Positions 3,301 through 42,815 of a DNA stretch of 64,000 nt are shown here, piece by piece. Made by a program: the position numbers and the translations under genes. Under the pieces are notes generated by a model that worked only from the letters and a program-made list of their open reading frames with translations, had not been told where the DNA came from and did no database searches. The stretch is from Chloroflexota bacterium (GTDB lineage: Bacteria > Chloroflexota > Anaerolineae > Anaerolineales > UBA4823). The stretch spans positions 1 to 64,000 of the forward strand of contig JBFMFR010000019.1 of the NCBI GenBank assembly GCA_040752025.1, given 5' to 3'. How positions within the stretch are numbered: the first letter of the stretch is position 1; each line of letters starts with the position of its first letter.

Positions 3301-6300
3301 CCAGCCGCCGCCCATTCGTAGATCTGGTTGGAGCACAACTGCCCGTCCGAATTGAGCATGTTCTCGAAAACATACACCCGGCTGGCATCCGCTGCTTGCC
3401 CCAGGCGCTCCAATACCTCCTGAACAACATCCTGCAAAACACCCTCGCTCAAAAACCGCTCCGCCGCGAAGCTTACAGCTTCCAAAATACGGTCACGTCG
3501 GTCCAGGGCAGCTTGGGTACGTTGACGTTCTCCTAATTCATTCTGTGTAGATTGGTATAAACGGGCGTTTTCCAGAGCGGTCGCCACCTGTCCCGCCACA
3601 GTTTCCATCACCATTACATCATTATCATCAAATGCGCCTGCTTCAGAGCTTTGCACATCCAGCACACCCAAAACCTGTTCCCCCAATCTCACCGGTACAC
3701 TCAATTCAGAACGCGCCTCGGGCACTTCGGGATATAAGTGCACATAATGTTCTTCCGCGGCCACATCATTAGCCAACAAACTGTGCGCATGCGCCGCTAC
3801 CCAGCCCACCATACCCTGTTCCATCGCCAGGGCATGGTTCTCGGGATACAGCGCGGCCCGTTCCCCCACCATCACCTTCGCCTCCAGCATATTATTCGCA
3901 TGATTTAGCAAAAATATCCCCACGTGCTGGTAGCCAAAACGCTCCTGGATCAAGTTAGCTGCCCGACCAACCACTTCGGACGGCGCCAGTAGCGCTGCAA
4001 TCTGTCTACCCACATCGTTGAGCAGCGCCAGTTGCGCAACGCGCTTCTTCATCGACTCTTCCGCCCGTTTGCGATCTGTAATATCCAGCGCAGCTCCATA
4101 AAAATGCACCGGCTTGCCATGATCGTCAAGGACAACCCGTACCTGGTCGTGCAAATAGCGAACTGCGCCATCCGGGCGAACAATCCGGAATTCGATATCA
4201 AACGGTTCGCCTTGTTCGCGAGCCAGGCTTATCGTCCGAGCCAATTTCTCCCGGTCATCCGGATGTACCAGGCTGTGCATTGTCTCAAAAGAAGGTTCAC
4301 CATCCAGGTAGCCCATAATCTCCCGCATCTGTTGTGACCACCTCACTTGGCCACTGCGCGAATCCCAATCATAGCTACCCAATTTAGCTATCTCTTGAGC
4401 CAGGCTCAAACCCGCCTGACTTTGCCGCAAGGCGGCTTCCGCTTGCAATCGTACGATACTGCCCCCAATATGTGCTGCAATAGCCTCCAGAGCATTGCGC
4501 GTGCTGGGGGGGAAATCATCGTGAGTGTGTGAAGCCAGGTTGAAACAAGCAATGACCCGGTCTTCATGCAGCACCGGGATCCCAGTCAATACTTTTAGGG
4601 CCTCATTTTCGCGTACACCACCTTCCGCCTCTGGAAAAGCCTCTGAATATTTTTTATAGTAAGGCCTACCAGCTTTAATCAGTTCTGCCTGAGGCGTATC
4701 TGCCTCGAAGCAATGGACAGCTTGCACAAATTCATCGGTAAAACCACGGTGAGAAATCAGATCTATCCCCCCACTCTCTTGATTGACAAGATATACCCCG
4801 CCGCTATCAACCCCCTCGTATTCTAGCGCCGTCTCCAGGGCTCGATCCAAAGCCTCTGTCAAACTGCGCGCCGAACCAACCGCTACCGCCAGATCCCGCT
4901 CGATTTGCAATGCTGCCTCCGCCAGCTTGCGCTCTGTAATATCTAGCATCACCCCGCGCAGGCCAGTTGCCTGATCCGCCTCAACCACCACTGTTACCAC
5001 ATCTCGGAACCACAAAGTTTGTCCATCAGCAGAGATCATGCGATACTCGAACTCGTAATTTCGCATTTCCTCCACTGCCTGATGTGAATAGGCCGGTGCC
5101 CATTCTCGATCATCCGGATGCATATGCGTTTGCCAAAAATCTGGATCCTGAGCCCATAGATCCACCGGGTAACCCAGAAGGCGCTCTGCCTGGCGGTTGA
5201 CAAAAGTATATCCTGGGCGGCGCAAGTCGATTTCCCATACAATTCCTTCGATCGTATTGACCAGGTCATCCAACACCTGGCGAGCTTGTTGTTGCCCAAT
5301 TGCAGTTCCAAACATCCGTGCAGCCGTACGTAAAGCATCCACTTCAGCATCCATCCAGGTTCGCCCCTGTGTACAATCATCAAAACCCATAATCCCCCAA
5401 CAACGTCCTCCCACAAAAATTGGCACGGCCAGGAAAGAAGTAATATCCAGTGCAGACAGGATTTCTTGCACCCAGGCTGGAAATTCAGATGTGTAACCAA
5501 TTATTGGCTGCCCGGCCATTATCACATTGAACCAATGCTTCAACTCCGCTGCTGACAAAGGGATATCCCGCAACTGAAGGCCTTCCACCTGCGTTGCAAT
5601 CCCGGGCGCAGCCCACTGGAAACGCTGGCTGGTGAATTGTGCGCCAGTCGGATCGACGCGGTTTTCAAAGACATGTACCCGACTGGCCCCAGCTGCCTCA
5701 CCCAGGATTGCCAATACCTGTGTGATCTCGCTAGTCCAATCCGCCTCGCGCAAAAAACGCTCAGCAGCCAGGTTGATCGCCTGCAAGATCACATCTCTAC
5801 GCAGCAAAGCCTCTTCAGCCTGCACTGCTGCACTGACATTTTCAACAGTCGTCACCATGCCATCGATTTGGCCATCCTCATCAAACAAAGGCGCAGCATT
5901 GATCGACAGCAGCACTCGCCGTCCATCTGGCCACTGAATCGCATGCTTCACTTGCTGGACTGCCTGTCCTGAGCGCATTACCTTAACGAACGGTAACTCG
6001 TCATCCGGGAATGCACTCCCATCAAAGGCAGTTATTTGCCACCCAGGATCGTTATAGTCCCGATGACTGATCTCGTCTCGCTCCAATCCCAATACTTGTT
6101 CAGCGCGAGGGTTAGCAAAAACAATCTTTCCGGCTCGATCCAGGGTGACAATCCCCGCTGGGCTGGTTTCCATCACCTGCGCAATCAGGTCCCGCTCGCG
6201 CTGCAAAGCTTGCTCGGTCCTAACGCGTTCCGTGACATCCTGGAATATCGAAACCATCTTACCTGGGGAAGCTCGGAAAGCATGCACTTCAAAAGCGCCT

Positions 6301-6890
6301 GCTATTTGCCCCTCCTGATAGGTTATCTGGTCAGCTTTCCAACTCTCTCCCGACGAGGCCACCTTGCGATAATTTTCCGGCACCTCTAAGTCGACCAGCC
6401 CTGGAAAAGCTTCCTCAATTGTCTTACCTATGAATTGCCGGTTATCTACGCCCAGGATTTTGTCCGCTGCTGGGTTGGCTCCTTCGAACACCAGGCTCCC
6501 ATCTAACCGAAGCTCATATATGTGCATACCCAAAGGAACGGAATTCACAATGCTGCGGAATTTCTCTTCCGACTCTCGTAGCGCCTCTCCCATGCTGCGC
6601 AATTCTCTTTCCGCCAAGGTCAAATCCTGGAAATAATGGCGGATACGCCAGACACCGAGGAACATCAATAATGAGATAAACAATCCTAAGGCATCGAAAG
6701 AGACCGCGGCTTTAAATAAGTAGTCTCCACCTAAACTAAACAAAGACACAAAACGCCGGGCAGCCATCAGAGCCATACCCACCGCGATCAACACCCAGGC
6801 CACCCTGCGGCCTGTCAACGGGATCAATTGCAAGGCCAGAAATGCCGCCCCAAGTTGTAGAACGATAGAAAGCAAAATTAACAACACCAT
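360..6890 (-). CDS. Multi-sensor hybrid histidine kinase (N-terminal TM region, multiple PAS and GAF domains, HisKA, HATPase_c, C-terminal receiver)
   Basis: 2176-aa ORF. H-box HELNNPLTS, ATPase motifs DNGPGI and [12 protein letters not shown]-terminal receiver [10 protein letters not shown]...[12 protein letters not shown]. Repeated PAS/GAF blocks. Confidence 0.9.
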
Positions 6891-25059: not shown

Positions 25060-25587
25060 TCAGGGCACAGTGAATTCCTGCAACTGGCGTTCTATCGTTA
25101 TATATTTCGTCTGGCAGTTGAATGATTCGCCCCCAAAATCGCGCTCGCACCAGCGGATCCGGTATTTGCCAAAGTCAGAAATTGGATACTCCCCATAGTA
25201 ATTGGGAGCCAGCCAACCCAGGAAAATAATCTCGCCAGAATTCTTGAAGCGATACAGGTTGACGTTAACGCCCGTTTTATTCCGAATCCGGTACCACAAG
25301 CCAGTCAGAGTCGTGGGCGTAAAGCTGAAAGTTGCCCAACCCGTAGATTCTGCGCTGGGCAATTCAGTAGGTGTCTCCGTGATGGTGGGCGCAGCGCTTG
25401 GTGCAGGTGTGTCTGTGGCAATTGGCTCAACAACCTCAGGAAGTGGGGTATCGGTTGGCACAGGCGTATCACTGGGCACAGGCGTCTCGGTTGGAGTAGC
25501 CGCCCGGAAAGTTGGGAAAGAGCAGCTTGCCACCAGGCTGGCACAAACAATCACCATGCTACATACGCGCCCAAAGGGAATCCTCAT
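25060..25587 (-). CDS. Secreted protein: signal peptide, Pro/Thr-rich linker, about 80-aa C-terminal two-Cys domain paralogous to the ectodomain of the adjacent Ser/Thr kinase
   Basis: C-terminus YRIRNKTGVNVNLYRFKNSGEIIFLGWLAPNYYGEYPISDFGKYRIRWCERDFGGESFNCQTKYITIERQLQEFTVP aligns along its length with the kinase C-terminus (VQIRNRTGGDANLYRIGSSGNRNFLGWLSNGFYGIYTFPSLGSWTIEYCQRDAQGNDANCRQKDIDVSESGQEFAVP). Confidence 0.6.
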   Translation of the reverse strand: MRIPFGRVCSMVIVCASLVASCSFPTFRAATPTETPVPSDTPVPTDTPLPEVVEPIATDTPAPSAAPTITETPTELPSAESTGWATFSFTPTTLTGLWYRIRNKTGVNVNLYRFKNSGEIIFLGWLAPNYYGEYPISDFGKYRIRWCERDFGGESFNCQTKYITIERQLQEFTVP

Positions 25588-25607: not shown

Positions 25608-27137
25608 CTAAGGCACTGCAAACTCCTGCCCGGACTCGGAAACATCAATATCCTTCTGTCGGCAATTGGCATCATTACCCTGCGCGTCGCGTTGACAGTA
25701 TTCGATCGTCCAACTGCCCAGCGACGGGAAAGTATATATCCCATAAAACCCATTGGACAGCCAACCCAGGAAATTCCTATTGCCCGAACTTCCAATACGA
25801 TACAGGTTGGCGTCCCCGCCAGTTCTGTTACGAATCTGCACTTTTACAGTTCCCTGCACCGGAGGCGATGTGGGACTCGGCTCCACCCGCGTCGCTGTTG
25901 GTGGGGGTTGTGTAGGAACCCTGGTGGGTACCGGCGTGGCTGATGCGTTTACTGCGGGTTGCGGAGTCGGCAAAACTGGACTGGTTGCAGTGGGGCGTGT
26001 TTCGATCCTTTGTGTGGCCGGCGCGCTGGTCACGAACATCCTCTGCAGTGCGGTTTGTGTTGCTCGCAGGTTCGTTACGTCCCCTCTATTGCCCAACATG
26101 GCTGCCACCAGCAATACAACCACAAGCAATCCCCCCCCACCCAGCCCCAGCCCGGCGATCAATAGCCAGGGGATACTGCTGCGTCGGGGTGGCTGTTGGC
26201 GAACCTCCGAAACAACTTCGCTGCTGCCATAACTGACCTCACGTGTGCCAGGCTGGACAACCTGTGTTGCCACAGCAGGCAATGAAACTTGTGTGACAGC
26301 TTCTGGTCTTCTGGCCGGCGTTGTTGACAACGCCGTCCAAAAGGCATCCACAGTCAAATAGCGATTTTGTGCCTGCACTGCCATCGCTTTGAGGATGGCA
26401 GCCTCCACTTGCGTGCTAACCTCTGGATTCAGCTCACTTGGGGGTGTAAGATCTGCCTGCCCGGCTACCCTAAGAACACTCTCTACTGGCACCTCACCGG
26501 TCAGCAAGGCATACATTGTTGCCCCCAGTGCGTAAATATCTGATCGGCTATCGGTGCCCGTTCCGCTGTATTGTTCTGGGGGGCTGAAGCCCGGAGTAAC
26601 GGCTTTTGCAGCCGCGGCAGTCGCCATGTTCGGGGTAAAGGTTTTAGCAATCCCAAAGTCCACCAACACCGCTCGGCCCTCAGAGGTGATGCGGATATTG
26701 GCTGGCTTGACATCCCGGTGGATGATCGGCTTCGTCCGGCTGTGCAAATACTTCAGCGCGTCGCATACCTGCCCCATCCACTCCAGGATCTGCGCCTCCG
26801 CCAGGTGACCGGGCTCGCCGGGTAAATTGGCGTGATCCAGCTTCTCCTGTAGATCCTCCCCATCGATATATTCCATTACCAAATATTGACCCATGCCCTG
26901 GATCGTAAAATAATCCGTCACCTTAGGTAGATGGGCATGATTCAAGTTAGCCAACATCGAGGCTTCGAGGGCAAATTGGCGCGCCGCCTCTTCAGATATC
27001 TCCGTATTGATTTTCACAGCACATGGGGCCTTCAAGTTGAGATCCCAGGCGCGATAAATTGCCCCAAAACCGCCCTGTCCGAGTTTCCGAACTATTCGGT
27101 AGCGATTATTCAGTATTCTTCCGGAATCCAGATCCAT
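25608..27137 (-). CDS. PknB-like Ser/Thr protein kinase: kinase domain, one TM, Pro/Thr linker, small extracellular two-Cys domain
   Basis: YRIVRKLGQGGFGAIYRAWD...AVK (ATP site), HRDVKPANI (catalytic loop), DFGIAK. Hydrophobic stretch WLLIAGLGLGGGGLLVVVLLVAAMLG. Start at MDLDSG with AGGAG RBS. Confidence 0.85.
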   Translation of the reverse strand: MDLDSGRILNNRYRIVRKLGQGGFGAIYRAWDLNLKAPCAVKINTEISEEAARQFALEASMLANLNHAHLPKVTDYFTIQGMGQYLVMEYIDGEDLQEKLDHANLPGEPGHLAEAQILEWMGQVCDALKYLHSRTKPIIHRDVKPANIRITSEGRAVLVDFGIAKTFTPNMATAAAAKAVTPGFSPPEQYSGTGTDSRSDIYALGATMYALLTGEVPVESVLRVAGQADLTPPSELNPEVSTQVEAAILKAMAVQAQNRYLTVDAFWTALSTTPARRPEAVTQVSLPAVATQVVQPGTREVSYGSSEVVSEVRQQPPRRSSIPWLLIAGLGLGGGGLLVVVLLVAAMLGNRGDVTNLRATQTALQRMFVTSAPATQRIETRPTATSPVLPTPQPAVNASATPVPTRVPTQPPPTATRVEPSPTSPPVQGTVKVQIRNRTGGDANLYRIGSSGNRNFLGWLSNGFYGIYTFPSLGSWTIEYCQRDAQGNDANCRQKDIDVSESGQEFAVP

Positions 27138-27294
27138 AACACTGCTCCTGGAACACGATACCTGTAAACCTGTACACACACTTCACTAGTTAAGATTGTA
27201 GATCGAAAGCAAAGGGCTGTCAAGCATCATAAGGGTGATACCAGAATCATCCTTCCGGATTATTGAAATCCCTCCACACAATCCAGCCGGGTTG

Positions 27295-27323
27295 ATGACA
27301 ATTGCGAGTAGATTTGGTAAATT
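27295..27323 (+). promoter_or_regulatory. Sigma-70-type promoter: -35 ATGACA, 17-nt spacer, extended -10 TGgTAAATT (core motif GTTGATGACAAT-N11-TTTGGTAAATT)
   Basis: Seen in sequence. The identical flanking motif recurs at 39216..39247 upstream of ctaA-ctaB. Lies 38 nt upstream of the 27361 ATG. Confidence 0.5.
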
Positions 27324-27360
27324 ATCGTTGTCAGATTTGTGTCTTACTGAGTTATCTTTC

Positions 27361-27795
27361 ATGAAACACACCAGTCAAACGCCCACCAGACGTGTACTGA
27401 TCGCCTCCAGCCATCCACTCTTTGGCCAGGGGTTACGTAGCCTGCTGCATGAACGCCGCCAGACAGGCGTCGAAGTCATTGGCATGGTCTCTAATCTAGA
27501 AGAAGCTCTGCAAGCGATCGAGCAATTGACTCCCGATCTGGTGATCGTTGATTACGATGATCAGGCGCTCAACCGTGATGAATTCCTGGCTCGCTTTGTA
27601 GAAGGCGAAAAGAAGCTGCGCGTGGTTTTGCTTTCCCTGCAAAGCAGCAGCCAGGCCATCATTTACGACCGGCGTACCCTGGCGGCCGCAAAAATCGACG
27701 ACTGGCTAGAGGAGTGGCGTTCTAACAGTGAAATCCCCATTACATCCGCCGAAAATGGCGCACTTCCACCGAAAACCCCAAGCAGGAGTTCAAAT
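27361..27795 (+). other. Receiver-domain-like (degenerate, pseudo-receiver) ORF segment in frame with, and with no stop before, coxB
   Basis: RRVLIASSHPLFGQGLRSLLHERRQTGVEVIGMVSNLEEALQAIEQLTPDLVIVDYDD...LRVVLLSLQSS has NarL/LuxR-type receiver topology. The acidic pair is SS instead of DD and the conserved Lys is missing. Reads through into MKHLVIAGF (coxB) in the same frame. Confidence 0.45.
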
Positions 27796-28806
27796 ATGAA
27801 ACATCTTGTCATCGCAGGTTTCCTGGTTGTGCTTGTCACCGCCTTGCTCATTTTAGGCCTGGGACAGGCGCACCTGCTGCCCATTCAAGCCAGCGCCCAG
27901 GCCAGACCCATCGACCAGCTATTCCGCCTGGAATTTATGGTGATAGCCTTCCTCTTTTCTCTTATCGTCGTCTTTATGATCTATAGCATCTTCGTTTTCC
28001 GGCGCAAGCCCGGCGACACCAGCGACGCTCGCCACGTGGAAGGCAATACCCGCCTGGAAGTTGCCTGGACCGTTGCTCCGCTGGCACTTGTAATGGTTTT
28101 CGCCTACCTGGGCGGCGATTCGCTCTCCGAGACACTGCGCGCCGATCCCAGGCCGCTGGAGATCAATGTAATCGGGCAGCAGTGGACCTGGCGATTCGAA
28201 TATCCCGATTACAACCTGACCTCTAGCACGCTTTATATGCCGGTCGATAAACAGGCCATCTTGCACCTGAGTTCAGCAGACGTTATCCATTCCTTTTGGG
28301 TGCCGGAGTTCCGGGTAAAGCAAGATGCCCTGCCCGGAGGGGACGATTTTATCCGCGACTTACGTATCACGCCAACGCTCATCGGCGATTACAAAGTGCG
28401 CTGTGCTGAGCTTTGTGGGTTACAACATGCCCTGATGGAGAGCCCTGTAAAAGTTGTCTCGCAAGCAGATTTCGATGTCTGGCTCGCCGAACAGTCCGAT
28501 TTCAACGCCGATCCGGTAGCCCGCGGCGAGAAGGCTGTCAAGGATTACGGCTGCCTGGCCTGCCACAGCCTGGATGGCTCCAAAGGTATTGGCCCTACCT
28601 GGAAAAGCCTTCTCGGCCGCCAGGAGAAACTCACTGATGGCAGTACAGTCACAGTGGATGAGTCCTACCTTCGCTATTCGATCCTCAATCCGAACAGCCA
28701 GATCGTTGAGGGTTTCCCGGCTGGAGTCATGCCACAGAACTTCGCCCAGCAGCTTTCACAAGCCACTCTCGCCGATATCATCGCCTATCTGTCCACGTTG
28801 AAATAG
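27796..28806 (+). CDS. coxB: Cytochrome c oxidase subunit II with fused C-terminal cytochrome c domain (caa3-type)
   Basis: Two N-terminal TM segments. CuA site HSFWVPEF...CAELCGLQHALM. C-terminal heme-binding CLACHS. Strong internal RBS AGGAG 6 nt before the ATG at 27796. Confidence 0.85.
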   Translation: MKHLVIAGFLVVLVTALLILGLGQAHLLPIQASAQARPIDQLFRLEFMVIAFLFSLIVVFMIYSIFVFRRKPGDTSDARHVEGNTRLEVAWTVAPLALVMVFAYLGGDSLSETLRADPRPLEINVIGQQWTWRFEYPDYNLTSSTLYMPVDKQAILHLSSADVIHSFWVPEFRVKQDALPGGDDFIRDLRITPTLIGDYKVRCAELCGLQHALMESPVKVVSQADFDVWLAEQSDFNADPVARGEKAVKDYGCLACHSLDGSKGIGPTWKSLLGRQEKLTDGSTVTVDESYLRYSILNPNSQIVEGFPAGVMPQNFAQQLSQATLADIIAYLSTLK

Positions 28807-28820
28807 GCCCGGAGGTTGCA

Positions 28821-30764
28821 ATGTCCGAAAAACGAAAACCCACACTTCTCAACATAGGTCTGATCCGCGGCCTGATCGGCTTCATCATTGGCTTTTTGAT
28901 CGGTGTACTTCTTGTCACTCTGATCCGTGCCGTTTTGGGCCTTTCCGCCTGGGCATGGGATCCTGGAGCCGGGAAGTTCGGCTTCAGTGAGCCAGCCTGG
29001 GTTCTCGGCGGCATTTTCGCCTGGGCCGGCTTCATGCTGCGCGTCGGCGTAATGGATGATTGGATCGCTTGGTCGTTTGGGCGTGAGACTGCCAACCATC
29101 CCCAGGACGCTTTCGAATCCGGCCCAGCCCGTTTTCTTAGCGCCACCTATGATCACAAAGCCATTGGTGTGCAGTATGGCGCCACCTCCCTGGTTGTCTT
29201 CCTGGTCGCCGGACTGTTTGCACTGATTTTCCGCAGCGAACTCTTCGCCCCTGGCATCCAGTTCTTGCCGCTCAAAGAATTCAACACCATCATGAGCCTG
29301 CATGGCATCGTCATGATCGTCGCCATCTTGTTAGGCGTTGGCGCCATGTCGAACTACCTGGTTCCCCTGATGATCGGCGCTAACGATATGGCCTTTCCTC
29401 GCCTGAATGCCTTCGCCTTCTGGGTCAACGTGCCCGCCGCGCTGCTGCTGCTCAGCAGCCTGGTTCTGGGAGGCTTCGACACCGGTTGGACCGGCTATCC
29501 ACCCCTGAGCGCTAAAGCTCCCCTGGGGATGGATTTCTTCTTCCTGGGCGTTTATTTTGCCGGCCTATCTTCCATCCTGGGCTCCATCAACATTATCGTG
29601 ACCACCATCCGGTTGCGCGCCAAAGGCATGACTTACTTCCGTATGCCCATTTTCGTTTGGACCGCCCTGGCAACAGCCGCCATCGGTGCCACAGCAACAC
29701 AATTGATCGGCCTTTCTTTCCAGATGGTATTATTTGAGCGTCTGTTTGGCATGGGATTTTTCAACCCGCTCATCGGCGGCGATCCGATCCTGTTCCAACA
29801 CCTCTTCTGGTTCTACTCACATCCTGCCGTCTATGTCTTCGTGCTCACCGGCCTGGGCGTGATCAGCGAACTGCTGCCTGTCTTCGCCCGCAAGCCGCTC
29901 TTTGGCTACCGCTGGGTCGCCCTTTCTTCCTTCGGCATCGCCCTGGTTGGATTCCTGGTCTGGGCCCATCACATGTTCACCAGCGGCATGGCTTCCTATC
30001 TGCGTGTTCCCTTCATGTACAGCACCTTGCTGGTGGCCATCCCCACTGGGGTCAAATTCTTTAGCTGGATAGCAACCATCTGGGAGGGCAAGCTTTCATT
30101 CGAAACGCCTATGCTGTTTGTCCTGGGCGCCATCTCGATTTTTCTGTTAGGTGGGTTGAGCGGTCCCCCGAACGCCACCGTAGCCACCGACCTGCACCTG
30201 CAAGACACCTATTGGATCGTCGGGCATTTCCACGCCACCATGTTTGGCGGCTACGTCTTCCCATTCTTTGCCGCCTTGTACTACTGGTTCCCCAAGTTCA
30301 CCGGGCGTATGTACAACGAGAAACTGGGCAAACTGCATTTCTTCTTGATGCTGCCTGCCTTCTACGTGCAATCGCTGGGGCAAATGCAAATAGGTCTCCT
30401 GGGCATGCGCCGCCGCATCGGCGACTACGACCCCACTCTGGATATCCAGACCTCACACATGCTCATCACCATCGCCGGTTTCATCATCGGCATCTCGGTG
30501 CTGATCGCCATTTATAACCTGGTTTACAGCGCCTCGCGCGGGCGCGTCGCCGAGCGCAATCCCTGGCGCTCTCGCTCGCCGGAGTTTATGCTGCCTTCTC
30601 CCATCCCGGTTCACAACTACGATCAGCCCTTCGAGGTAATCGGTGAGCCCTACGATTATGGCCTGGAAGGCTCAGCCTATGTTAGCATCGATCCCGACCG
30701 CGCTCCTGCCGCCCAATCCTCGCCGGGCATCGGCCCGGCTGCCGAAACAGCCGCGGCCGATTGA
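28821..30764 (+). CDS. ctaD: Cytochrome c oxidase subunit I, with about 95-aa N-terminal two-TM extension
   Basis: Heme-copper oxidase signatures WFYSHPAVYVF, VGHFHATMFGG, HHMFTSG. The canonical start region (DHKAIGVQYG) begins about residue 100. 647 aa. Confidence 0.9.
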   Translation: MSEKRKPTLLNIGLIRGLIGFIIGFLIGVLLVTLIRAVLGLSAWAWDPGAGKFGFSEPAWVLGGIFAWAGFMLRVGVMDDWIAWSFGRETANHPQDAFESGPARFLSATYDHKAIGVQYGATSLVVFLVAGLFALIFRSELFAPGIQFLPLKEFNTIMSLHGIVMIVAILLGVGAMSNYLVPLMIGANDMAFPRLNAFAFWVNVPAALLLLSSLVLGGFDTGWTGYPPLSAKAPLGMDFFFLGVYFAGLSSILGSINIIVTTIRLRAKGMTYFRMPIFVWTALATAAIGATATQLIGLSFQMVLFERLFGMGFFNPLIGGDPILFQHLFWFYSHPAVYVFVLTGLGVISELLPVFARKPLFGYRWVALSSFGIALVGFLVWAHHMFTSGMASYLRVPFMYSTLLVAIPTGVKFFSWIATIWEGKLSFETPMLFVLGAISIFLLGGLSGPPNATVATDLHLQDTYWIVGHFHATMFGGYVFPFFAALYYWFPKFTGRMYNEKLGKLHFFLMLPAFYVQSLGQMQIGLLGMRRRIGDYDPTLDIQTSHMLITIAGFIIGISVLIAIYNLVYSASRGRVAERNPWRSRSPEFMLPSPIPVHNYDQPFEVIGEPYDYGLEGSAYVSIDPDRAPAAQSSPGIGPAAETAAAD

Positions 30765-30812
30765 ACCATCGCTCCACACAGCCTTTCTTCTATTACTTGA
30801 GGAGTAAACAAC

Positions 30813-31025
30813 ATGGATGAAGACAAAAAAAAACAGATCTACAGCAACGGCGCTGCCGTGCTTCTTATCCTGGGCGTTGCCACCGTTGGTGAGTATTTCA
30901 TCGGCTCTGTAGCTTCTATCTGGTGGGCCCCCCTGATGGGCATCGCTCTGTTCAAGGCTTACTTTATCGTCCGAGACTACATGCACCTGGCGCGCCTGTT
31001 TGCCAGTGAAGAGGAAGGACATTAA
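30813..31025 (+). CDS. Small two-TM protein, probable prokaryotic cytochrome c oxidase subunit IV
   Basis: 70 aa, position between subunits I and III, GAGGAG RBS, stop overlaps the ctaE start (TAATG). Confidence 0.45.
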   Translation: MDEDKKKQIYSNGAAVLLILGVATVGEYFIGSVASIWWAPLMGIALFKAYFIVRDYMHLARLFASEEEGH

Positions 31026-31606
31026 TGACCGCGCAATCCGTTTCACTTCCCGAATATCGCACCAAAACCGCCACCAATCGCCTCGGGTTGTGGTTGTTCA
31101 TCCTCTCCGATGCTTTTATATTCGGCGGGCTGCTGGTAGCGCGCTTCTATTTGTTAGGTACCGCAGAGCGTCCCGAGGTAAGCCAGTTCGTTGGTTTGAT
31201 TGTCACCGCCATCTTGCTGGTTAGCAGTTTCTTCATGAACCGCGCCGAAACCGCCATCACCTTTGGCGATCAAAAAGCTTTCTTGAACAATGTCCTGGTC
31301 ACCATCACCCTCGGCACGCTCTTCTTGGTTGGTGTGGTTGGCGTGGAATGGCAAATTTCTCCACATGCTCCTAACTATTCTGCCGCCTATTCACTCTTCT
31401 ACACCATGACAGGCTTCCATGCCTTTCACGTTCTTACCGGCGTGATCTTTCTGCTCATTGTGTACCGCAATGGCCGCAAAGGACTATACAATGCCGAGCG
31501 CCACTGGCCCGTTGAAGCTGCGGCGGTTTACTGGCACTTCGTTGACGTAGTCTGGGTCTTCTTCTATCCAGCCTTGTACCTGATCGGAAGAGTAGCTTTG
31601 CAGTAA
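31025..31606 (+). CDS. ctaE: Cytochrome c oxidase subunit III
   Basis: 193 aa, 5 TM segments. Heme-copper oxidase subunit III profile (LGLWLFILSDAFIFGGLL..., HAFHVLTGVIFL). Confidence 0.85.
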   Translation: MTAQSVSLPEYRTKTATNRLGLWLFILSDAFIFGGLLVARFYLLGTAERPEVSQFVGLIVTAILLVSSFFMNRAETAITFGDQKAFLNNVLVTITLGTLFLVGVVGVEWQISPHAPNYSAAYSLFYTMTGFHAFHVLTGVIFLLIVYRNGRKGLYNAERHWPVEAAAVYWHFVDVVWVFFYPALYLIGRVALQ

Positions 31607-31613
31607 ACCTGAC

Positions 31614-32213
31614 ATGAAACGTATTTTTTGGACTATTCTTGGGATGACGATTGGCCTGGGGCTCGTACTCATCGCCTGGTATGTGACACAACGGAACTAC
31701 GCCTACCAGGGCGTCGTGATCGATCCGCCAGCGCCCGCCGCCGATTTCGAACTGGCTGATCAACACGGCCAACCTTTTCACTTAAGAGGTCAGCAAGGCA
31801 AGATCGTTTTGATCTTCTTCGGTTACACCAATTGCCCGGACGTATGCCCGGTCACCCTTTCGGAATATAAGCAAATCAAGGCCCAGCTCGGCGAACAAGC
31901 CGAAAATGTGCGCTTTGTCTTCATCACTGTCGATCCCGAGCGTGACAGCCCGGAACGCCTCGCCGCCTATCTGGCTAACTTCGATTCAACCTTCATTGGC
32001 CTGTCTGGCACGCGTGCTCAACTCGAGCCAATCTGGAGAAGTTATGGCGTCTACCAGGAGAAGCGCGACGTGGGTAGTGCCTCTGGCTACCTGGTAGATC
32101 ACACCGCCATCACTTTCTTGATCGATGCGCAGAGCAACTGGCATATCAATTACCCGTTTGGCATGGAAACCGAGAAAATCGTAGCTGATCTTCAACACCT
32201 GATCAAGGAATAG
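31614..32213 (+). CDS. SCO1/SenC copper chaperone (thioredoxin fold)
   Basis: N-terminal TM. CxxxC copper-binding motif FFGYTNCPDVCP plus conserved downstream His region. Confidence 0.85.
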   Translation: MKRIFWTILGMTIGLGLVLIAWYVTQRNYAYQGVVIDPPAPAADFELADQHGQPFHLRGQQGKIVLIFFGYTNCPDVCPVTLSEYKQIKAQLGEQAENVRFVFITVDPERDSPERLAAYLANFDSTFIGLSGTRAQLEPIWRSYGVYQEKRDVGSASGYLVDHTAITFLIDAQSNWHINYPFGMETEKIVADLQHLIKE

Positions 32214-32216
32214 GAC

Positions 32217-32744
32217 ATGTCCAAACAATCCCGTTTCTATCCATACCTGCTTCGTCTTTTGTTGGTTTCAGCCATTTCTCTGGGTATTGTCATCACCTTC
32301 AACGAAATTGCCTACCTCATTCAAAAGGATGAAAATGATCGCGCTCCAAAGACCATCCAACTCACTATTCCGGCAGGAACTGCACAAAGCCTCGAATCTG
32401 GTGTGGACGTGTCAATCATTCCCCCAGAGATGGTTTTCGTCTTGGGCGATGTGTTAGAAGTCAAGAACGAAGATATCGTGACCCACCAGATTGGTCCAAT
32501 CTGGGTGCCCCCAGACGCCACAGGCAGTCTGGTGATGGGAGATGCCCAAAAATTCACCTATGCTTGCTCCTTCAAAGCCAGCAAATATTTCGATTTTGAT
32601 GTGCGCCAACCCACAACGCTTGGTACGCGCCTCACCGCCATCTCCATTACGGCGCCCACGATGGGCTCCTTGCTATTCCTATACAGTTTGCTGGTATATC
32701 CAATCAAAACCAAACAGAATACCCGGTCTCCTCAGGCTGGATAA
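32217..32744 (+). CDS. Hypothetical membrane protein embedded in the oxidase assembly cluster
   Basis: 175 aa. N-terminal signal anchor and C-terminal TM. No recognisable motif. Confidence 0.4.
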   Translation: MSKQSRFYPYLLRLLLVSAISLGIVITFNEIAYLIQKDENDRAPKTIQLTIPAGTAQSLESGVDVSIIPPEMVFVLGDVLEVKNEDIVTHQIGPIWVPPDATGSLVMGDAQKFTYACSFKASKYFDFDVRQPTTLGTRLTAISITAPTMGSLLFLYSLLVYPIKTKQNTRSPQAG

Positions 32745-32790
32745 CCCCGGTTTTCCTCCTGCCATCCCCCCATCGTTTATAATTGCCAGC

Positions 32791-33564
32791 ATGTCTATCG
32801 TCTCGCGCATGTTCAGTCGCCGTTGGTTCATCGCGACTCTGCTGGTTGCAGTTGGTGTGGCTGCGCTCACCCGCTTGGGTATCTGGCAGCTCGATCGCCT
32901 GGATCAACGCCGCGCCTTCAATGCGCGTGTCCAGGCCCAAATTGACGCCCCCTTGTTGGTCCTCACAGGCGAAGCCTTGAGCGCCGATCTTTTCGATATG
33001 GAATACCGCCAGGTGCAAGCCACCGGCGAATATGATTTTTCGAACCAGATCGCCTTACGTAACCAGTACTGGGAAAATCAATGGGGAGTACATTTGATCA
33101 CACCACTGATCATCTCAGGCAGCCAACAGGCCATCCTGGTCGACCGCGGCTGGATCCCCGCCGAGGACTTCGAGAGCGGCGATTGGTCTAAGTTCGATGA
33201 GCCGGGTCAGATTACCGTAAATGGCGTTCTCCGCCGTCCGCAAGTAAAAGCTGAACTGGGCGGGCGCAGCGACCCTACCCCCGCTCCTGGCTCGGCCCCG
33301 TTGAAAGCCTGGAACTTCGTCAATATTGAGCAAATTGCCAGGCAAATTCCTTACACTTTATTGCCTGCTTATCTCCAACAAGCCCCTGACTCAACCTGGA
33401 GCGCCATGCCCTACCGCACCCAGCCCGAACTGGAATTGACTGAAGGGCCACATCTAAGTTATGCGATGCAGTGGTTTGCCTTCGCTACCATCCTGGGGTT
33501 GGGTTATCCCTTCTTCATCCGCAGGCAGGAAAGAAAGCCCCCCACAAAGAAATCAGACTCTTGA
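32791..33564 (+). CDS. SURF1 family cytochrome oxidase assembly protein
   Basis: N-terminal TM plus GIWQLDRLDQRRAFNARV (the SURF1 GxWQLxR motif) plus C-terminal TM. 257 aa from the ATG at 32791. Confidence 0.8.
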   Translation: MSIVSRMFSRRWFIATLLVAVGVAALTRLGIWQLDRLDQRRAFNARVQAQIDAPLLVLTGEALSADLFDMEYRQVQATGEYDFSNQIALRNQYWENQWGVHLITPLIISGSQQAILVDRGWIPAEDFESGDWSKFDEPGQITVNGVLRRPQVKAELGGRSDPTPAPGSAPLKAWNFVNIEQIARQIPYTLLPAYLQQAPDSTWSAMPYRTQPELELTEGPHLSYAMQWFAFATILGLGYPFFIRRQERKPPTKKSDS

Positions 33565-39065: not shown

Positions 39066-39218
39066 AATCTTCTCCTGGGTTCTTATATTTTAGGGCAGGT
39101 CCGGCTCCAATGCAAGCTTTCTCATAGAAAATCGGCTTTTTTAGTTGAGAAAAGTGGGTGATGCCAGAATCACCCCATTGGGCAGACGAATTTCCTCCCC
39201 AGGAATACAAAAATGTTG

Positions 39219-39247
39219 ATGACAATCCTCTCAAACTTTGGTAAATT
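39219..39247 (+). promoter_or_regulatory. Second copy of promoter motif GTTGATGACAAT-N11-TTTGGTAAATT (-35 ATGACA, 17 nt, TGgTAAATT)
   Basis: Identical -35 and -10 blocks and spacing to 27295..27323. Sits 52 nt upstream of ctaA-ctaB. Confidence 0.5.
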
Positions 39248-39298
39248 TAGATCGTCAAGCTCTGAATTGTACATCTCATCGTTTGCATCTATCGCTTT

Positions 39299-41119
39299 TT
39301 GAGTGACCGCCTGATGAACAACCTGAAAACCAACTCTATTCCCGACCTTCTCCCTTTCCGCCGTCTGGCGCTTGCCACAACCATTGTACTGTTTCTGGTC
39401 ATTGTTACTGGGAGTATCCTGCGCACGGTTAGCCCAGGGAATAGCTGCCCGGATTGGCCCACCTGCTTCAATACCTGGATGCCTCCAGACAATCAAGGCC
39501 CTTTGATTGACTATGCGCACAGAGCGGCCACTGTTCTGGCAGTCATCCTGGCGCTCGGCTTTGCCGTTCTGGCGCTGATTCGCCACCGCCAACAGCCTTT
39601 ACTGTTCTGGTTCGCCCAGGTTGCCATGTTCCTGATGAGTGTACAAGTTGCTCTGGGAGCAGCCCTGGCATTGAACTTACTATCCTCTTCGCAGGCCTGG
39701 CTTTCCACCCTCCACCTGGGGTTTTCTTTGCTCGCTCTAGCAGCCTCACTCACCGCCACTTTAGCAGCATTTGGTGTAGCCATTCCCCACAATCTCGCTT
39801 GGTCTGGTTTTACCCGCCTTTCCTTGCTGACTACCCTGGCGGTTTTCCTTCTACTGGTCAGCGGCGCAATCGTAGCTGGTAGCCAGGCATCCTCGACCTG
39901 CCAGGCATGGCCTTTGTGTGACACTTTCCCCTCTAACAGTGCCGCCTGGATCAATCTCTCTCATCGCGGCTTAGTTGCCCTGGCAGGAATATTGCTGTTT
40001 ACATTGCTCGTGCAGGCCTGGCGCACACAGCGCACCCAAACCCCCGTAATCACAGCGACCACTGCCGCTGCGGTGTTGTTTCTCGCTCAGGCGTTGTTAG
40101 GTGCTCGCATGGTGCAAGGCTTCCCGGGTTACCTGCTGGTTCTGCATACGGCCACAGCCGTTGCCGTCTGGGCCGTATTAGTGGTGCAGTTCATTACCGT
40201 TCTGCATGCCAACCGCGCCAGCGAACAGGAAAGCCTCGAAGCCGCCAGCCTCCGCGGGCGCAAAGGTCTGCTCAAAGATCTACTGTTACTCACCAAACCC
40301 ATTGTGGTGCTCCTGCTCTTGGTCACCACCTACGCCGGGATGGTGATCGGCGCTCGAGAATGGCCCGCTTTCCCCGTCGCCTTTTGGACTCTCGTAGGAG
40401 GCTTCATGGCGGCCGGCGGATCGGGAGCCATCAACCAATACATCGATCGCTACGACGACCAAAAAATGCAGCGCACCCAAAAGCGTCCCATCCCCGCTGG
40501 CCGCCTGACCCCGGGCGAGGGTTTAGCCTTCGGAGTTGCCATGACCCTGGCCTCATTTTACCTGGTGACAGCCTATGTCAACTTATTGGCAGCCTTGCTC
40601 ACTTTGGCAGGCATAATCTATTATGTGTTGATCTACAGCATCTTCCTGAAAAAGACCACTGTTCAAAACATCGTCATCGGCGGCGGTGCAGGCGCCATCC
40701 CACCCCTGGTTGGTTGGGCCGCTGCTACCGGCAGTTTGAACATTCCTTCGCTGTTCTTGTTCGCCGTCGTTTTCATGTGGACTCCACCGCACTTCTGGGC
40801 ATTGGCGTTGGTGCGGCGCAAAGATTATGCCCGTGCTGGCGTGCCCATGCTGCCGGTCGTGCGCGGCGAGGCTGAAACCCGCTGGCAGATTTTTATCTAC
40901 ACCCTGGAGCTCGTCGCTCTAACCCTGGTTTTGCCCATCTTCGGGTTGGGGGGCGGCATTTATCTGGTTGGAGCTGGCATGCTCGGCCTCTGGCTGCTCT
41001 CTACCGCCTACCGGGTCTGGAAACAGGGTGGCAATAAGCTGGCCTGGAAAATGTACCGCTATTCCAGCATGTACCTGGCCTTCATCTTCCTCGTCTTGAT
41101 GATCGATCGATTAGTGTAG
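39299..41119 (+). CDS. Fused heme A synthase (CtaA/COX15) and protoheme IX farnesyltransferase (CtaB/CyoE)
   Basis: N-terminal half has the CtaA Cys pair CPDWPTC and 8 TM segments. C-terminal half begins LLKDLLLLTKPIVVLLLLVTTYAGMVIGA (UbiA-family CtaB). Single 606-aa ORF (TTG at 39299, alternative ATG at 39314). Confidence 0.8.
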   Translation: MSDRLMNNLKTNSIPDLLPFRRLALATTIVLFLVIVTGSILRTVSPGNSCPDWPTCFNTWMPPDNQGPLIDYAHRAATVLAVILALGFAVLALIRHRQQPLLFWFAQVAMFLMSVQVALGAALALNLLSSSQAWLSTLHLGFSLLALAASLTATLAAFGVAIPHNLAWSGFTRLSLLTTLAVFLLLVSGAIVAGSQASSTCQAWPLCDTFPSNSAAWINLSHRGLVALAGILLFTLLVQAWRTQRTQTPVITATTAAAVLFLAQALLGARMVQGFPGYLLVLHTATAVAVWAVLVVQFITVLHANRASEQESLEAASLRGRKGLLKDLLLLTKPIVVLLLLVTTYAGMVIGAREWPAFPVAFWTLVGGFMAAGGSGAINQYIDRYDDQKMQRTQKRPIPAGRLTPGEGLAFGVAMTLASFYLVTAYVNLLAALLTLAGIIYYVLIYSIFLKKTTVQNIVIGGGAGAIPPLVGWAAATGSLNIPSLFLFAVVFMWTPPHFWALALVRRKDYARAGVPMLPVVRGEAETRWQIFIYTLELVALTLVLPIFGLGGGIYLVGAGMLGLWLLSTAYRVWKQGGNKLAWKMYRYSSMYLAFIFLVLMIDRLV

Positions 41120-41140: not shown

Positions 41141-42784
41141 TCACTTCACCACCAGGGTATATTTTTGTTGGATAGGAGTCTTGGAATTGTAAGTATCCAA
41201 CTTCCCATCCTTATTCACATCATACCCATCCGTGATCTCCTGTGAGAAAGTAAAATCGACCTGGATACTGTAAGTACCCGAAGAATATGAGCCAAGATCG
41301 ATCGTGTAATACACCCAATACGCCCCATCCAGGTTCGTTCCACACGGCACTTCGGACATGGACAGCAGATCCGATTGTAGCTCCCCTTGCAAACGCGAGC
41401 CATTGATCGTCAGGCGTACGTTGATCGCCGGGCGCGTTTCTCGCGCCAGGTCAGCGCCTTTCACTCCCCACAACCCATAGATCAAATGAATTGGGCGATT
41501 TGCCTGAACCGTGAACGATTTACCGCAAGAAGGGCGCAAATATAATACTTGCGGAGGTAGCGAGGTGGGCGTATCGCTTGGCAAAACTCGAGTTGGCGTT
41601 GAGGTATTGGTAGCTGTAGGTAAAATTTTCGCCTGTGTAGCGACTGGGCGCGTTGGCGATGGTGTAACTCGCGGCGACGATGTAACTCGCCTGGTGTTGG
41701 TAGCCACCGGCTCATCTGCTATCGAAGCACTGGTCACACGCGCGCTGGTAGGCGCTGGCGGGGCCGGAGTCGCAGGCGCGCCTCCCATCAAATTGTAAAC
41801 CACCAAAACACACAATACTACAAACAGGCCGATAACTGCAAATCCCCAGGCGGGGATCTTGGCCCCTGAGGCCGCTCGCGCTTGTCCAACCTGTGGCAGC
41901 GCCACTGCCTGCGTTCTGCTGGCGCCAATTTGCGTTGCCCCATCTACCTGCACCGTTGCCGGCCAGGGTTTGGAGGCTGTAGCCTGTATAACGAGGGCCT
42001 GCTTGAAAGCCGCCGTGCTTTGGAAACGTTGGTCTGGCTGCAACTGCATTGCCCGCCCCAATGCCGCTACACTGTTGCGCGACACAGCCAGATTCATACT
42101 CCCCAGGGAAGGAAGCCTGTCGCCTGTAGCTCGTTGGATGCTCTCTTGTGGCTGCTGACCAGACAAAAGATGGTATAGAGTGGCCCCTAAAGCATAAACA
42201 TCCGTCCGGGCATCCGTTCGGCCTTGCCCATACTGTTCCAGGGGTGAATATCCTGGTGTAACTGCCCTTGCTCCTATGGTGGTCCTTAGATGTGGGTCAT
42301 ACACCTTGGCAATCCCGAAATCTACCAGCACAGCCCTGCCGTCTGGCCGGACGCGGATGTTAGCCGGCTTGATATCCCGATGGATTATCGGCGGATTCTG
42401 GTTGTGCAGATAAATCAGCGCATCGCACACCTGCAAAATCCAGGGCAACACTTGCGCCTCGGGCAGTGGACCGCCTGCCCGGTCCAGCTTCTCCTGCAAA
42501 TCTTCGCCCTCGATATACTCCATCACCATGTATTGCCCTTGCCCGGCAATGCTGAACGAATCAATTACCCGCGGCAACCCCTGGTGATTTAGCGAATACA
42601 GCATCGAAGCTTCATGCCGGAATTGTCGTTGTGCTTCTGGAGAGGTATCCAGGCTTTCCTTGACCGCGCATGGCGCTTGAAGATTCAAATCCCAGGCGCG
42701 GTAGACCGCCCCAAAACCGCCCTGCCCCAGTAATTTGACGATCCGATAACGGCTATTCAGAACCTGGCCTGTAGCTAAAGGCAT
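41141..42784 (-). CDS. PknB-like Ser/Thr protein kinase (paralog of 25608..27137) with a different extracellular C-terminal domain
   Basis: YRIVKLLGQGGFGAVYRAWDLNLQAPCAVKE, HRDIKPANI, DFGIAK. TM IPAWGFAVIGLFVVLCVLVV. Start at MPLATGQ with GGAGAAG RBS. Confidence 0.85.
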   Translation of the reverse strand: MPLATGQVLNSRYRIVKLLGQGGFGAVYRAWDLNLQAPCAVKESLDTSPEAQRQFRHEASMLYSLNHQGLPRVIDSFSIAGQGQYMVMEYIEGEDLQEKLDRAGGPLPEAQVLPWILQVCDALIYLHNQNPPIIHRDIKPANIRVRPDGRAVLVDFGIAKVYDPHLRTTIGARAVTPGYSPLEQYGQGRTDARTDVYALGATLYHLLSGQQPQESIQRATGDRLPSLGSMNLAVSRNSVAALGRAMQLQPDQRFQSTAAFKQALVIQATASKPWPATVQVDGATQIGASRTQAVALPQVGQARAASGAKIPAWGFAVIGLFVVLCVLVVYNLMGGAPATPAPPAPTSARVTSASIADEPVATNTRRVTSSPRVTPSPTRPVATQAKILPTATNTSTPTRVLPSDTPTSLPPQVLYLRPSCGKSFTVQANRPIHLIYGLWGVKGADLARETRPAINVRLTINGSRLQGELQSDLLSMSEVPCGTNLDGAYWVYYTIDLGSYSSGTYSIQVDFTFSQEITDGYDVNKDGKLDTYNSKTPIQQKYTLVVK

Positions 42785-42815
42785 GTTCTTCTCCCAAGAA
42801 ATGGATACCATTATT

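Follow-up and report, generated by a model that had tools for sequence, protein, structure and literature searches.

We describe a gene in which a degenerate receiver domain of the response-regulator type is encoded in frame with subunit II of a cytochrome c oxidase (CoxB), found in a 64,000-nucleotide stretch of Chloroflexota bacterium DNA (Anaerolineae; Anaerolineales; UBA4823; assembly GCA_040752025.1, contig JBFMFR010000019.1, positions 1 to 64,000), which we refer to throughout as the window. The open reading frame (ORF) at positions 27361-28806 of the forward strand is, judged by its conservation, a real gene and the first of an A-family (caa3-type) cytochrome c oxidase operon. Initiation at its upstream ATG would yield a single polypeptide consisting of a cytoplasmic degenerate receiver, a flexible linker and a complete subunit II, the latter comprising three transmembrane (TM) helices, TM0, TM1 and TM2, the CuA domain and cytochrome c. 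An internal Shine-Dalgarno (SD) sequence and ATG would permit a second start at codon 146, giving subunit II without the receiver, and so two products from one ORF. The receiver would not be phosphorylated in the canonical Mg2+-dependent way; through contacts with proteins on the cytoplasmic side of the membrane it would take part in assembling or regulating the oxidase, in cis as part of the fusion and in trans after a split. Taken as a whole, this reading of one gene with two products (receiver-CoxB and plain CoxB) and a non-phosphorylated receiver acting in oxidase assembly or regulation is in our judgement likely; for the receiver itself we infer rather than demonstrate a function, which is probably that of a non-phosphorylated cytoplasmic module in one or other of these processes. 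The parts of the gene are as follows.

27361-27363 (+): start codon of the long receiver-CoxB product, its position kept among relatives
27388-27717 (+): degenerate NarL-family receiver-like domain, residues 10-119 (Pfam, NCBIfam, alignments, AlphaFold, Foldseek and the ratio of nonsynonymous to synonymous substitution rates, dN/dS)
27718-27795 (+): linker, residues 120-145, predicted to be disordered (AlphaFold predicted local distance difference test, pLDDT, below 50)
27784-27798 (+): internal SD AGGAG at 27784-27788, 7-nucleotide (nt) spacer and ATG at 27796, start of the short receiver-less CoxB
27790-27861 (+): TM0, N-terminal signal-anchor-like helix, residues 144-167 (AlphaFold helix, pLDDT 85-89)
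27874-27915 (+): periplasmic N-terminal COX2 motif LLPxxASxQAxPID, residues 172-185, with the AxA-like ASAQA (invariant columns)
27904-28137 (+): TM1 (residues 182-212), cytoplasmic loop FRRKPGD..LEVAWT and TM2 (residues 230-259) (AlphaFold, Pfam COX2_TM)
28156-28458 (+): CuA cupredoxin domain, residues 266-366 (Pfam COX2, TIGR02866)
28516-28806 (+): cytochrome c domain and stop codon, the latter at 28804-28806 (Pfam Cytochrom_C; CxxCH at C398, C401 and H402; M457; invariant columns)

A previous reading of the locus, made from the sequence alone, had noted that no stop codon intervenes between 27361 and the end of coxB, and the ORF listing of the window indeed gives one stop-free frame from this ATG to the TAG at 28804-28806, of 481 amino acids (aa), within a program-called ORF that begins at GTG 27235 and also ends at 28806. 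Residues 146-481 are CoxB, scoring 165.3 bits against TIGR02866 (cut-off 147.7) and carrying a C-terminal cytochrome c (NCBIfam, Pfam), and with this score, the CuA ligands and the CxxCH motif they have the features of a caa3-type subunit II. For comparison, 80 loci were taken from species-representative genomes, all of them Anaerolineales or other Chloroflexota metagenome-assembled genomes (MAGs), with receiver identities of 52-85%; after removal of one duplicate and addition of three metagenome contigs and the window this gave 83 unique loci, 82 of them from other assemblies (for the most part MAGs that represent GTDB species), and the receiver frame was followed through the DNA of each locus toward the end of coxB. 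The frame is open and in phase to the end of coxB in 66 of the 83, so that the in-frame arrangement which the sequence-only reading had proposed to look for in relatives is present in most of them. The remainder comprise seven loci in frame with one to three stops in the linker, three in frame at the junction with a frameshift inside coxB (long-read assemblies, and likely errors), five out of frame and split, and two with other defects. In nearly all 83 loci the upstream ATG lies about 8-11 codons (range 2-13) ahead of the conserved VLIAS core.

Clearly split loci are a minority (12/83). A neighbour-joining tree built from receiver plus CoxB has fused loci throughout and split ones at about eight scattered places; several of the splits stem from one nonsense change each, the frame being intact apart from it, as in L075 beside L073 and L037 beside L036. 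As placed on this tree, the splits are derived events and the fused state is ancestral and pervasive; stops between the two parts in relatives, which had been named beforehand as evidence against a fusion, are thus confined to these twelve loci and to scattered derived events. The frame breaks inside coxB lie in the TM0 region of long-read MAGs (L002/L027 at about 5436-5560, L019 at about 3436-3570, L038 at about 3411-3630) and are probably homopolymer indel errors and not true frameshifts.

The linker is unalignable between species and occurs in 15 distinct lengths of 57-144 nt (19-48 codons), yet in 70 of 74 loci its length is divisible by three. Stop codons occur 13 times in its receiver frame, always in split loci, while the other two frames contain 35 and 158; 65 of the 74 linkers are free of stops in the receiver frame. 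Because 66 of 83 loci are open and phase has been kept over so many lengths, the continuity of the frame is, on these counts, far beyond chance. Protein databases give the same picture: a search with the full 481-aa protein returned, besides the window's own product (P0121, whose NCBI name is merely 'cytochrome c oxidase subunit II'), at least 120 further protein clusters of 477-517 aa, with 61-70% identity at about 100% coverage, which carry COX2_TM, COX2 and Cytochrom_C, most of them with a Response_reg Pfam match as well. We had considered that the receiver might be a separate gene whose stop was lost in the window, as an initial receiver-only search gave mostly proteins of 117-150 aa; three long contigs showed such a separate receiver gene directly upstream of coxB. 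The DNA of the loci and the full-length search overruled this candidate, and because the full-length search finds at least 120 fused clusters, the short-protein matches reflect a sampling bias of the word-index candidate step.

These data bear on two alternatives. The window does come from a MAG, and a few long-read loci (L002, L019, L038) show likely indels inside coxB; a stop codon lost in this MAG through an assembly or sequencing artefact, as the sequence-only reading had also envisaged, is nevertheless so improbable as to be negligible, since 65 further loci, from species-representative genomes and metagenome contigs that many projects produced with many assemblers, show this open frame, as do at least 120 protein clusters. 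Alternatively, receiver and CoxB may be two functionally separate cistrons, with the in-frame continuity a neutral historical state and the read-through fusion an irrelevant by-product. This would fit the internal SD-ATG conserved everywhere, the approximately 12 split loci with their receiver still under constraint, the separate receiver gene before ctaD in L087 and the stand-alone proteins of the receiver-only search, although the last of these stem from the word-index step. It is hard to reconcile with a linker that is saturated with substitutions and yet is in frame and free of stops in the great majority of loci, or with the ancestral and pervasive fused state, and we consider two independent cistrons very unlikely. 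That the receiver is functional whether attached or not is indicated by its dN/dS, which is low both between fused species (0.01-0.2) and within an older split clade (0.05-0.13). A lack of conservation of the upstream ORF, which would have pointed to a non-coding leader, is not what the relatives show. Between the receiver-CoxB fusion and the translated leader of the operon that the sequence-only reading had offered, the fusion is favoured by the frame, the folded receiver and the SD-ATG kept over dozens of species, and a mere leader is unsupported because the upstream part is a folded domain with strong amino-acid constraint.

The upstream domain is receiver-like and degenerate. Residues 1-145 alone match Pfam Response_reg (PF00072) with 30.2 bits, exactly at the cut-off of 30.2 (26.9 bits within the full-length protein), and match NCBIfam NarL at 1.4e-10, far under its equivalog cut-off; the top Foldseek matches are NarL, M. 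tuberculosis NarL and EvgA, with about 86 columns aligned and TMq 0.57. The AlphaFold model of the receiver (pLDDT 76) has the order b1-a1-b2-a2-b3-a3-b4-b5-a5, with about five residues between b4 and b5 and no alpha4, so that the receiver models depart from the canonical (beta-alpha)5 fold; in canonical receivers alpha4 is part of the usual alpha4-beta5-alpha5 output face (PMC4601284). The receiver assignment of the sequence-only reading thus stands, whereas its extent of about 145 codons does not, as the predicted fold ends at about residue 119, and the linker is about 26 aa long and not 40. Fifteen positions are invariant in 82 receiver sequences (I14, S16, H18, F21, G24, P58, D64, D66, D67, R87, S92, L93, Y102, R104 and W115), and the receiver contains the stretches VLIASSHPLFGQGLR and VVLLSLQ..YDRR. 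A profile search of solved structures equates NarL D13/D14 with S16/S17, D59 with D64 and S87 with S92. The acidic pair of the Mg2+ site is consequently replaced by Ser-Ser, as had been noted before, with S16 invariant and S17 variable (S/G/N/C/A). The phospho-acceptor Asp is kept, D64 being invariant in two alignments of 82 and 71 sequences, as is S92 at the end of beta4. No Lys follows beta5, where the invariant Y102-D103-R104 is found instead; the Lys was rightly reported as missing, and its position is probably taken by the invariant R104. With a receiver-like fold from which part of the catalytic quintet (acidic pair, Lys) is gone, the domain has the marks of a pseudo-receiver, and its alignments and substitution rates identify it as a distinct, tightly conserved family, derived from NarL and under strong purifying selection.

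It could be argued that this is still a working phospho-receiver, in which D64 is phosphorylated by a DosS-like GAF-HisKA_3 kinase and which serves as a phosphate sink or as an on/off switch of the oxidase. The invariance of D64 and S92, together with the acidic D66 and D67, is compatible with this, and in 38 of about 80 loci a kinase (two GAF domains, HisKA_3 and HATPase) and a NarL-type REC-GerE regulator are encoded directly upstream on the same strand, 110-250 nt from the receiver ATG. The receiver is 32-40% identical to the receiver domains of these adjacent regulators, against 25.5% to E. coli NarL. Such a DosS/DosR-like kinase and regulator are absent from the 64-kb window, whose clade is without them nearby, and phosphorylation would have to proceed with both Mg2+-binding acidic residues turned to Ser (S16 invariantly), the Lys replaced and alpha4 missing, in a family of domains whose canonical chemistry requires an acidic core (PMC4601284). 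We regard a phosphorylated receiver as distinctly unlikely, and the non-phosphorylated module as the better account of these residues.

The second part of our reading, that a receiver-less CoxB is made as well, comes from the internal start. The strong ribosome-binding site AGGAG that the sequence-only reading had placed before the ATG at 27796 is there, with a 7-nt spacer, and AGGAG/GAGGAG (or GAGG) is found at a fixed distance before the ATG that precedes TM0 in almost every locus, whether fused or split. At this point 52 of the fused ORFs have an R[RS]xxM motif, in which the first codon is AGG (52/52) and the second AGA, AGT or AGC, while AGR codons make up 18.5% of all Arg codons in these ORFs; in the window the SD codons read Arg-Ser. 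Against this background usage it is the nucleotide string AGGAG that is conserved, and not Arg-Arg, and because it is conserved as nucleotides a receiver-less CoxB is probably produced by internal initiation, in line with the earlier suggestion that CoxB can also be made alone. An uninterrupted frame and an internal SD and start codon are thus conserved together, as expected of a dual-start gene, and the locus is a clear natural example of a single ORF in which two start sites are conserved. In the related species of L069 (about 2065-2090), L074 (about 3354-3380) and L081 (about 3315-3340) the canonical internal SD-ATG is lost and the two Arg are encoded CGG CGG; the three share TGG CTG GGA GGN ATY ACY KCT ATG (GGGAGG-10 nt-ATG) right after the receiver, which is possibly a relocated internal start. 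We found no evidence for an RNA switch, since an Rfam scan of 27100-27900 gave a single chance-level match (E 0.97) and the RNA fold around the internal start is unremarkable (z = -1.4).

Several observations count against the reading of one gene with two products. The SD of the upstream ATG is weak or variable among the 83 loci and absent in the window, and since it is so the long form may be a minor species. Covalent linkage is, by the comparison of loci, dispensable, since about 12 lineages tolerate the split, and the conservation of the internal SD-ATG shows that, as far as its signals can be read, the fusion is unneeded for making CoxB. The loss of the canonical internal start in L069, L074 and L081 might have been taken as proof of obligatory fusion, and fails as such because the new GGGAGG-10 nt-ATG follows the receiver. 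An AlphaFold model of the full-length protein (pTM 0.53; pLDDT below 50 for linker residues 120-143) does not place the receiver against the membrane part with confidence, and all genomes with the fusion are MAGs.

The CoxB part itself is complete. The nearest solved chain is the Thermus caa3 subunit IIc (2YEV_B, 2e-36); the CuA ligands H310, C348, C352, H356 and M359 are invariant columns, and the family alignment also has invariant L173, P174, A177, Q180, I184 and D185 in the COX2 motif and L232, E233, W236 and T237 in the segment that includes the start of TM2. The two COX2 helices have an N-out/C-out topology. From this topology, together with the positive residues ahead of TM0 and the RRK that follows TM1, we deduce an N-in, C-out orientation for TM0, which would place the receiver in the cytoplasm. 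To our knowledge, no solved or characterised subunit II has a cytoplasmic domain ahead of its N-terminal hydrophobic segment. TM0 resembles a signal peptide and is followed by a Pro and the A-x-A-like ASAQA, and the N-terminal presequences of proteobacterial subunits II are cleaved. The long product might therefore be a precursor: cleavage by signal peptidase behind TM0, with the end of ASAQA at residue 181 as one candidate site, would leave a membrane-anchored receiver-linker-TM0 of about 180 aa and an ordinary mature CoxB, in which case the fusion would deliver or anchor the receiver beside the oxidase and not build a permanently fused subunit; the split lineages, whose receiver functions although it is not joined covalently to mature CoxB, would agree with this. 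The motif ASxQAxPID, however, aligns with SPVATQIHWLD at residues 23-33 of the solved chain of R. sphaeroides subunit II, residues which we take to belong to the mature protein, and this would explain its conservation without cleavage. ASAQA, tried as a signal-peptidase site, overlaps this conserved N-terminal COX2 motif and hence is no proof of cleavage. Furthermore, position -3 is variable, with E, R, Q or M in some species, and there is no consistent small-x-small motif between TM0 and LLP. Cleavage of the long product is on balance unlikely, and we retain the uncleaved receiver-CoxB polypeptide as the preferred form.

The gene is preceded by a conserved set of control elements.

27231-27254 (+): palindromic operator-like site AAGGGTGAT-ACCAGA-ATCATCCTT, core GGGTGAT-N6-ATCACCC at 27233-27252 with one mismatch
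27292-27324 (+): promoter-like region with TTGATGACAAT (-35-like) at 27292-27302 and TTTGGTAAATTA (extended -10) at 27313-27324

In 63 of 88 fetched loci there is a single exact copy of the palindrome GGGTGAT-N6-ATCACCC, placed 110-160 nt before the receiver ATG, and the promoter elements, which scored 9/12 with TG in a promoter consensus scan of the window, recur in most of the related loci with unchanged spacing to that ATG; the combination of palindrome, TTGATGACAAT and TTTGGTAAATTA upstream of the receiver ATG is common to nearly all loci. We infer a transcription start near 27330, where the sequence-only reading had also put it, and its promoter is now backed by the conservation of the -35 and -10 elements across species. 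A second and perfect copy of palindrome, TTGATGACAAT and TTTGGTAAATTA is found at 39156-39248, before a ctaA-ctaB (heme A/heme O synthase) fusion gene at 39299-41119, and the two promoter/operator copies in the window suggest a small oxidase/heme A regulon. Paralogous Ser/Thr kinases at 25608-27179 (-) and 41141-42811 (-) flank the two promoters, and the former has a C-terminal domain of about 90 aa in common with a small ORF at 25060-25587 (-). The divergent kinase gene at 25608-27179 was considered as a part of the system and rejected, as the upstream neighbourhood is not conserved in relatives. Downstream of coxB the remainder of the operon (28821-33564, +; Pfam) follows in the gene order seen in relatives, with COX1, COX4_pro, COX3, SCO1 and SURF1 as in a caa3-type operon.

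28821-30764 (+): ctaD
30813-31025 (+): COX4_pro
31025-31606 (+): ctaE
31614-32213 (+): SCO1
32217-32744 (+): conserved ORF of unknown function between SCO1 and SURF1, 175 aa, no Pfam match
32542-33564 (+): SURF1 ORF, the real start of which is probably internal

A similar unannotated gene lies between SCO1 and SURF1 in L001-L003.

The same receiver family is found in other contexts. In at least 16 protein clusters (P0266, P0385-P0399) it is fused to the N-terminus of SURF1, and the receiver-SURF1 gene heads an operon in which a CtaA-CtaB fusion comes next and which adjoins a ba3-type oxidase with an Rrf2 regulator; the palindrome and promoter arrangement precedes these loci as well.

L084 10001-11173: receiver-SURF1 gene
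L085 8338-9510: receiver-SURF1 gene
L086 10001-11197: receiver-SURF1 gene

In L087 a stand-alone receiver gene (6001-6432) is first in an operon of the order receiver, COX1, COX4, COX3, COX2, SURF1, SCO1, and a very divergent receiver-CoxB fusion is represented by P0382/L088. From these arrangements the domain is tied to the 5' end of oxidase or oxidase-biogenesis operons and to membrane proteins of predicted N-in orientation, and not to CoxB alone; in every case it is the coding element that comes first after the conserved promoter and palindrome. By the Rosetta-stone argument, the fused and split forms and the parallel fusion to SURF1 point to a novel accessory component that serves the biogenesis or control of heme-copper oxidases in the Anaerolineales. 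In P0357 and P0355, MoaA (radical SAM, molybdenum cofactor synthesis) carries at its N-terminus receiver-like domains that are more distant; they have FSSHPLF and VSRYSLF (Ser/Arg-type) at the acidic-pair site and a short b4-b5 connection.

The two-component genes described above are located as follows.

L019, L024, L028, L031, L034-L038, L042-L044, L047-L060, L063-L069, L072-L075, L078 and L081: at about 450-2830 in each
L084: 7209-9670
L088: 1-2899

Their position invites a speculation that we offer tentatively and consider unlikely, namely that subunit II or SURF1 carries the receiver for feedback. The domain would be a copy, unable to accept phosphate, of the receiver of the DosR-like regulator that controls the same promoter. 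Displayed by the oxidase on its cytoplasmic face, it would bind the DosS-like kinase or the regulator, or else sit at the entrance of the K-pathway near E233 of subunit II. The amount or state of assembled oxidase would then feed back on transcription of the oxidase/heme A regulon or on enzyme activity, with a coupling that is stronger or weaker according to the proportions of long and short CoxB. It is in any case a locus that brings together two start sites, a conserved promoter/operator and a candidate oxygen-sensing two-component system, with each step open to direct experiment.

Control of terminal oxidases normally runs through transcription and through assembly factors. Receiver domains, caa3 subunit II and dual-start genes are all familiar on their own; their combination here is new in the literature that we searched, in which we met no account of a receiver-type domain as part of a terminal-oxidase subunit (CoxB) or of SURF1. 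Databases label the fusion proteins plain 'cytochrome c oxidase subunit II', leaving the extra domain unremarked, and by the distribution of the loci the fusion spans a whole Chloroflexota order; the receiver is present in 169 GTDB species. Sludge, sediments and soils harbour Anaerolineales in abundance, and it took genomes to reveal the aerobic capacity of these bacteria.

Comparison with known systems defines what is shared and what is particular to this gene. The receivers of the NarL/FixJ family (E. coli NarL, 1RNL/1A04; M. tuberculosis NarL, 3EUL; EvgA) are the best sequence and fold matches of the domain, and have in common with it a core of b1-a1-b2-a2-b3-a3-b4, the motif xxHPLFxxGL, and the phospho-acceptor Asp and the Ser that close b3 and b4, respectively. 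In contrast to them it has the Ser-Ser pair, a replaced Lys, no alpha4 and no helix-turn-helix output domain, and it is attached N-terminally to a respiratory membrane subunit. Pseudo- or atypical receivers that are independent of phosphorylation include FrzS, the N-domain of KaiA, HP1043 and the aspartate-less regulators. The receiver described here resembles these in its incomplete catalytic quintet and in an expected action through protein contacts and not phosphotransfer, and differs in that the Asp is kept and that the partner is a terminal oxidase subunit or SURF1; we know of no pseudo-receiver that is part of a respiratory complex. Chain B of Thermus thermophilus 2YEV aligns with the C-terminal 290 residues, both proteins having two TM helices, a CuA cupredoxin and a fused cytochrome c, and the operon contains ctaD, ctaE, COX4_pro, SCO1 and SURF1 as caa3-type systems do. 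A kinase and regulator of an architecture similar to DosS/DosT-DosR (DevS-DevR) adjoin many of these operons, and the operator, a G-rich 20-bp palindrome, is a further point of likeness; the likeness to DosS/DosR is one of architecture only, and heme binding, the signal sensed and binding of the palindrome are putative. Genes with an in-frame internal start that give long and short isoforms include those of E. coli CheA-L/CheA-S, IF2 alpha/beta and ClpB. Like them, this ORF combines an upstream start with a conserved SD and start codon further in, and an N-terminal domain would be left out of the short form. In contrast to CheA, IF2 and ClpB, the present case is known from sequence, and in it the predicted short form is a complete enzyme subunit, to which the long form would add a signalling-type domain.

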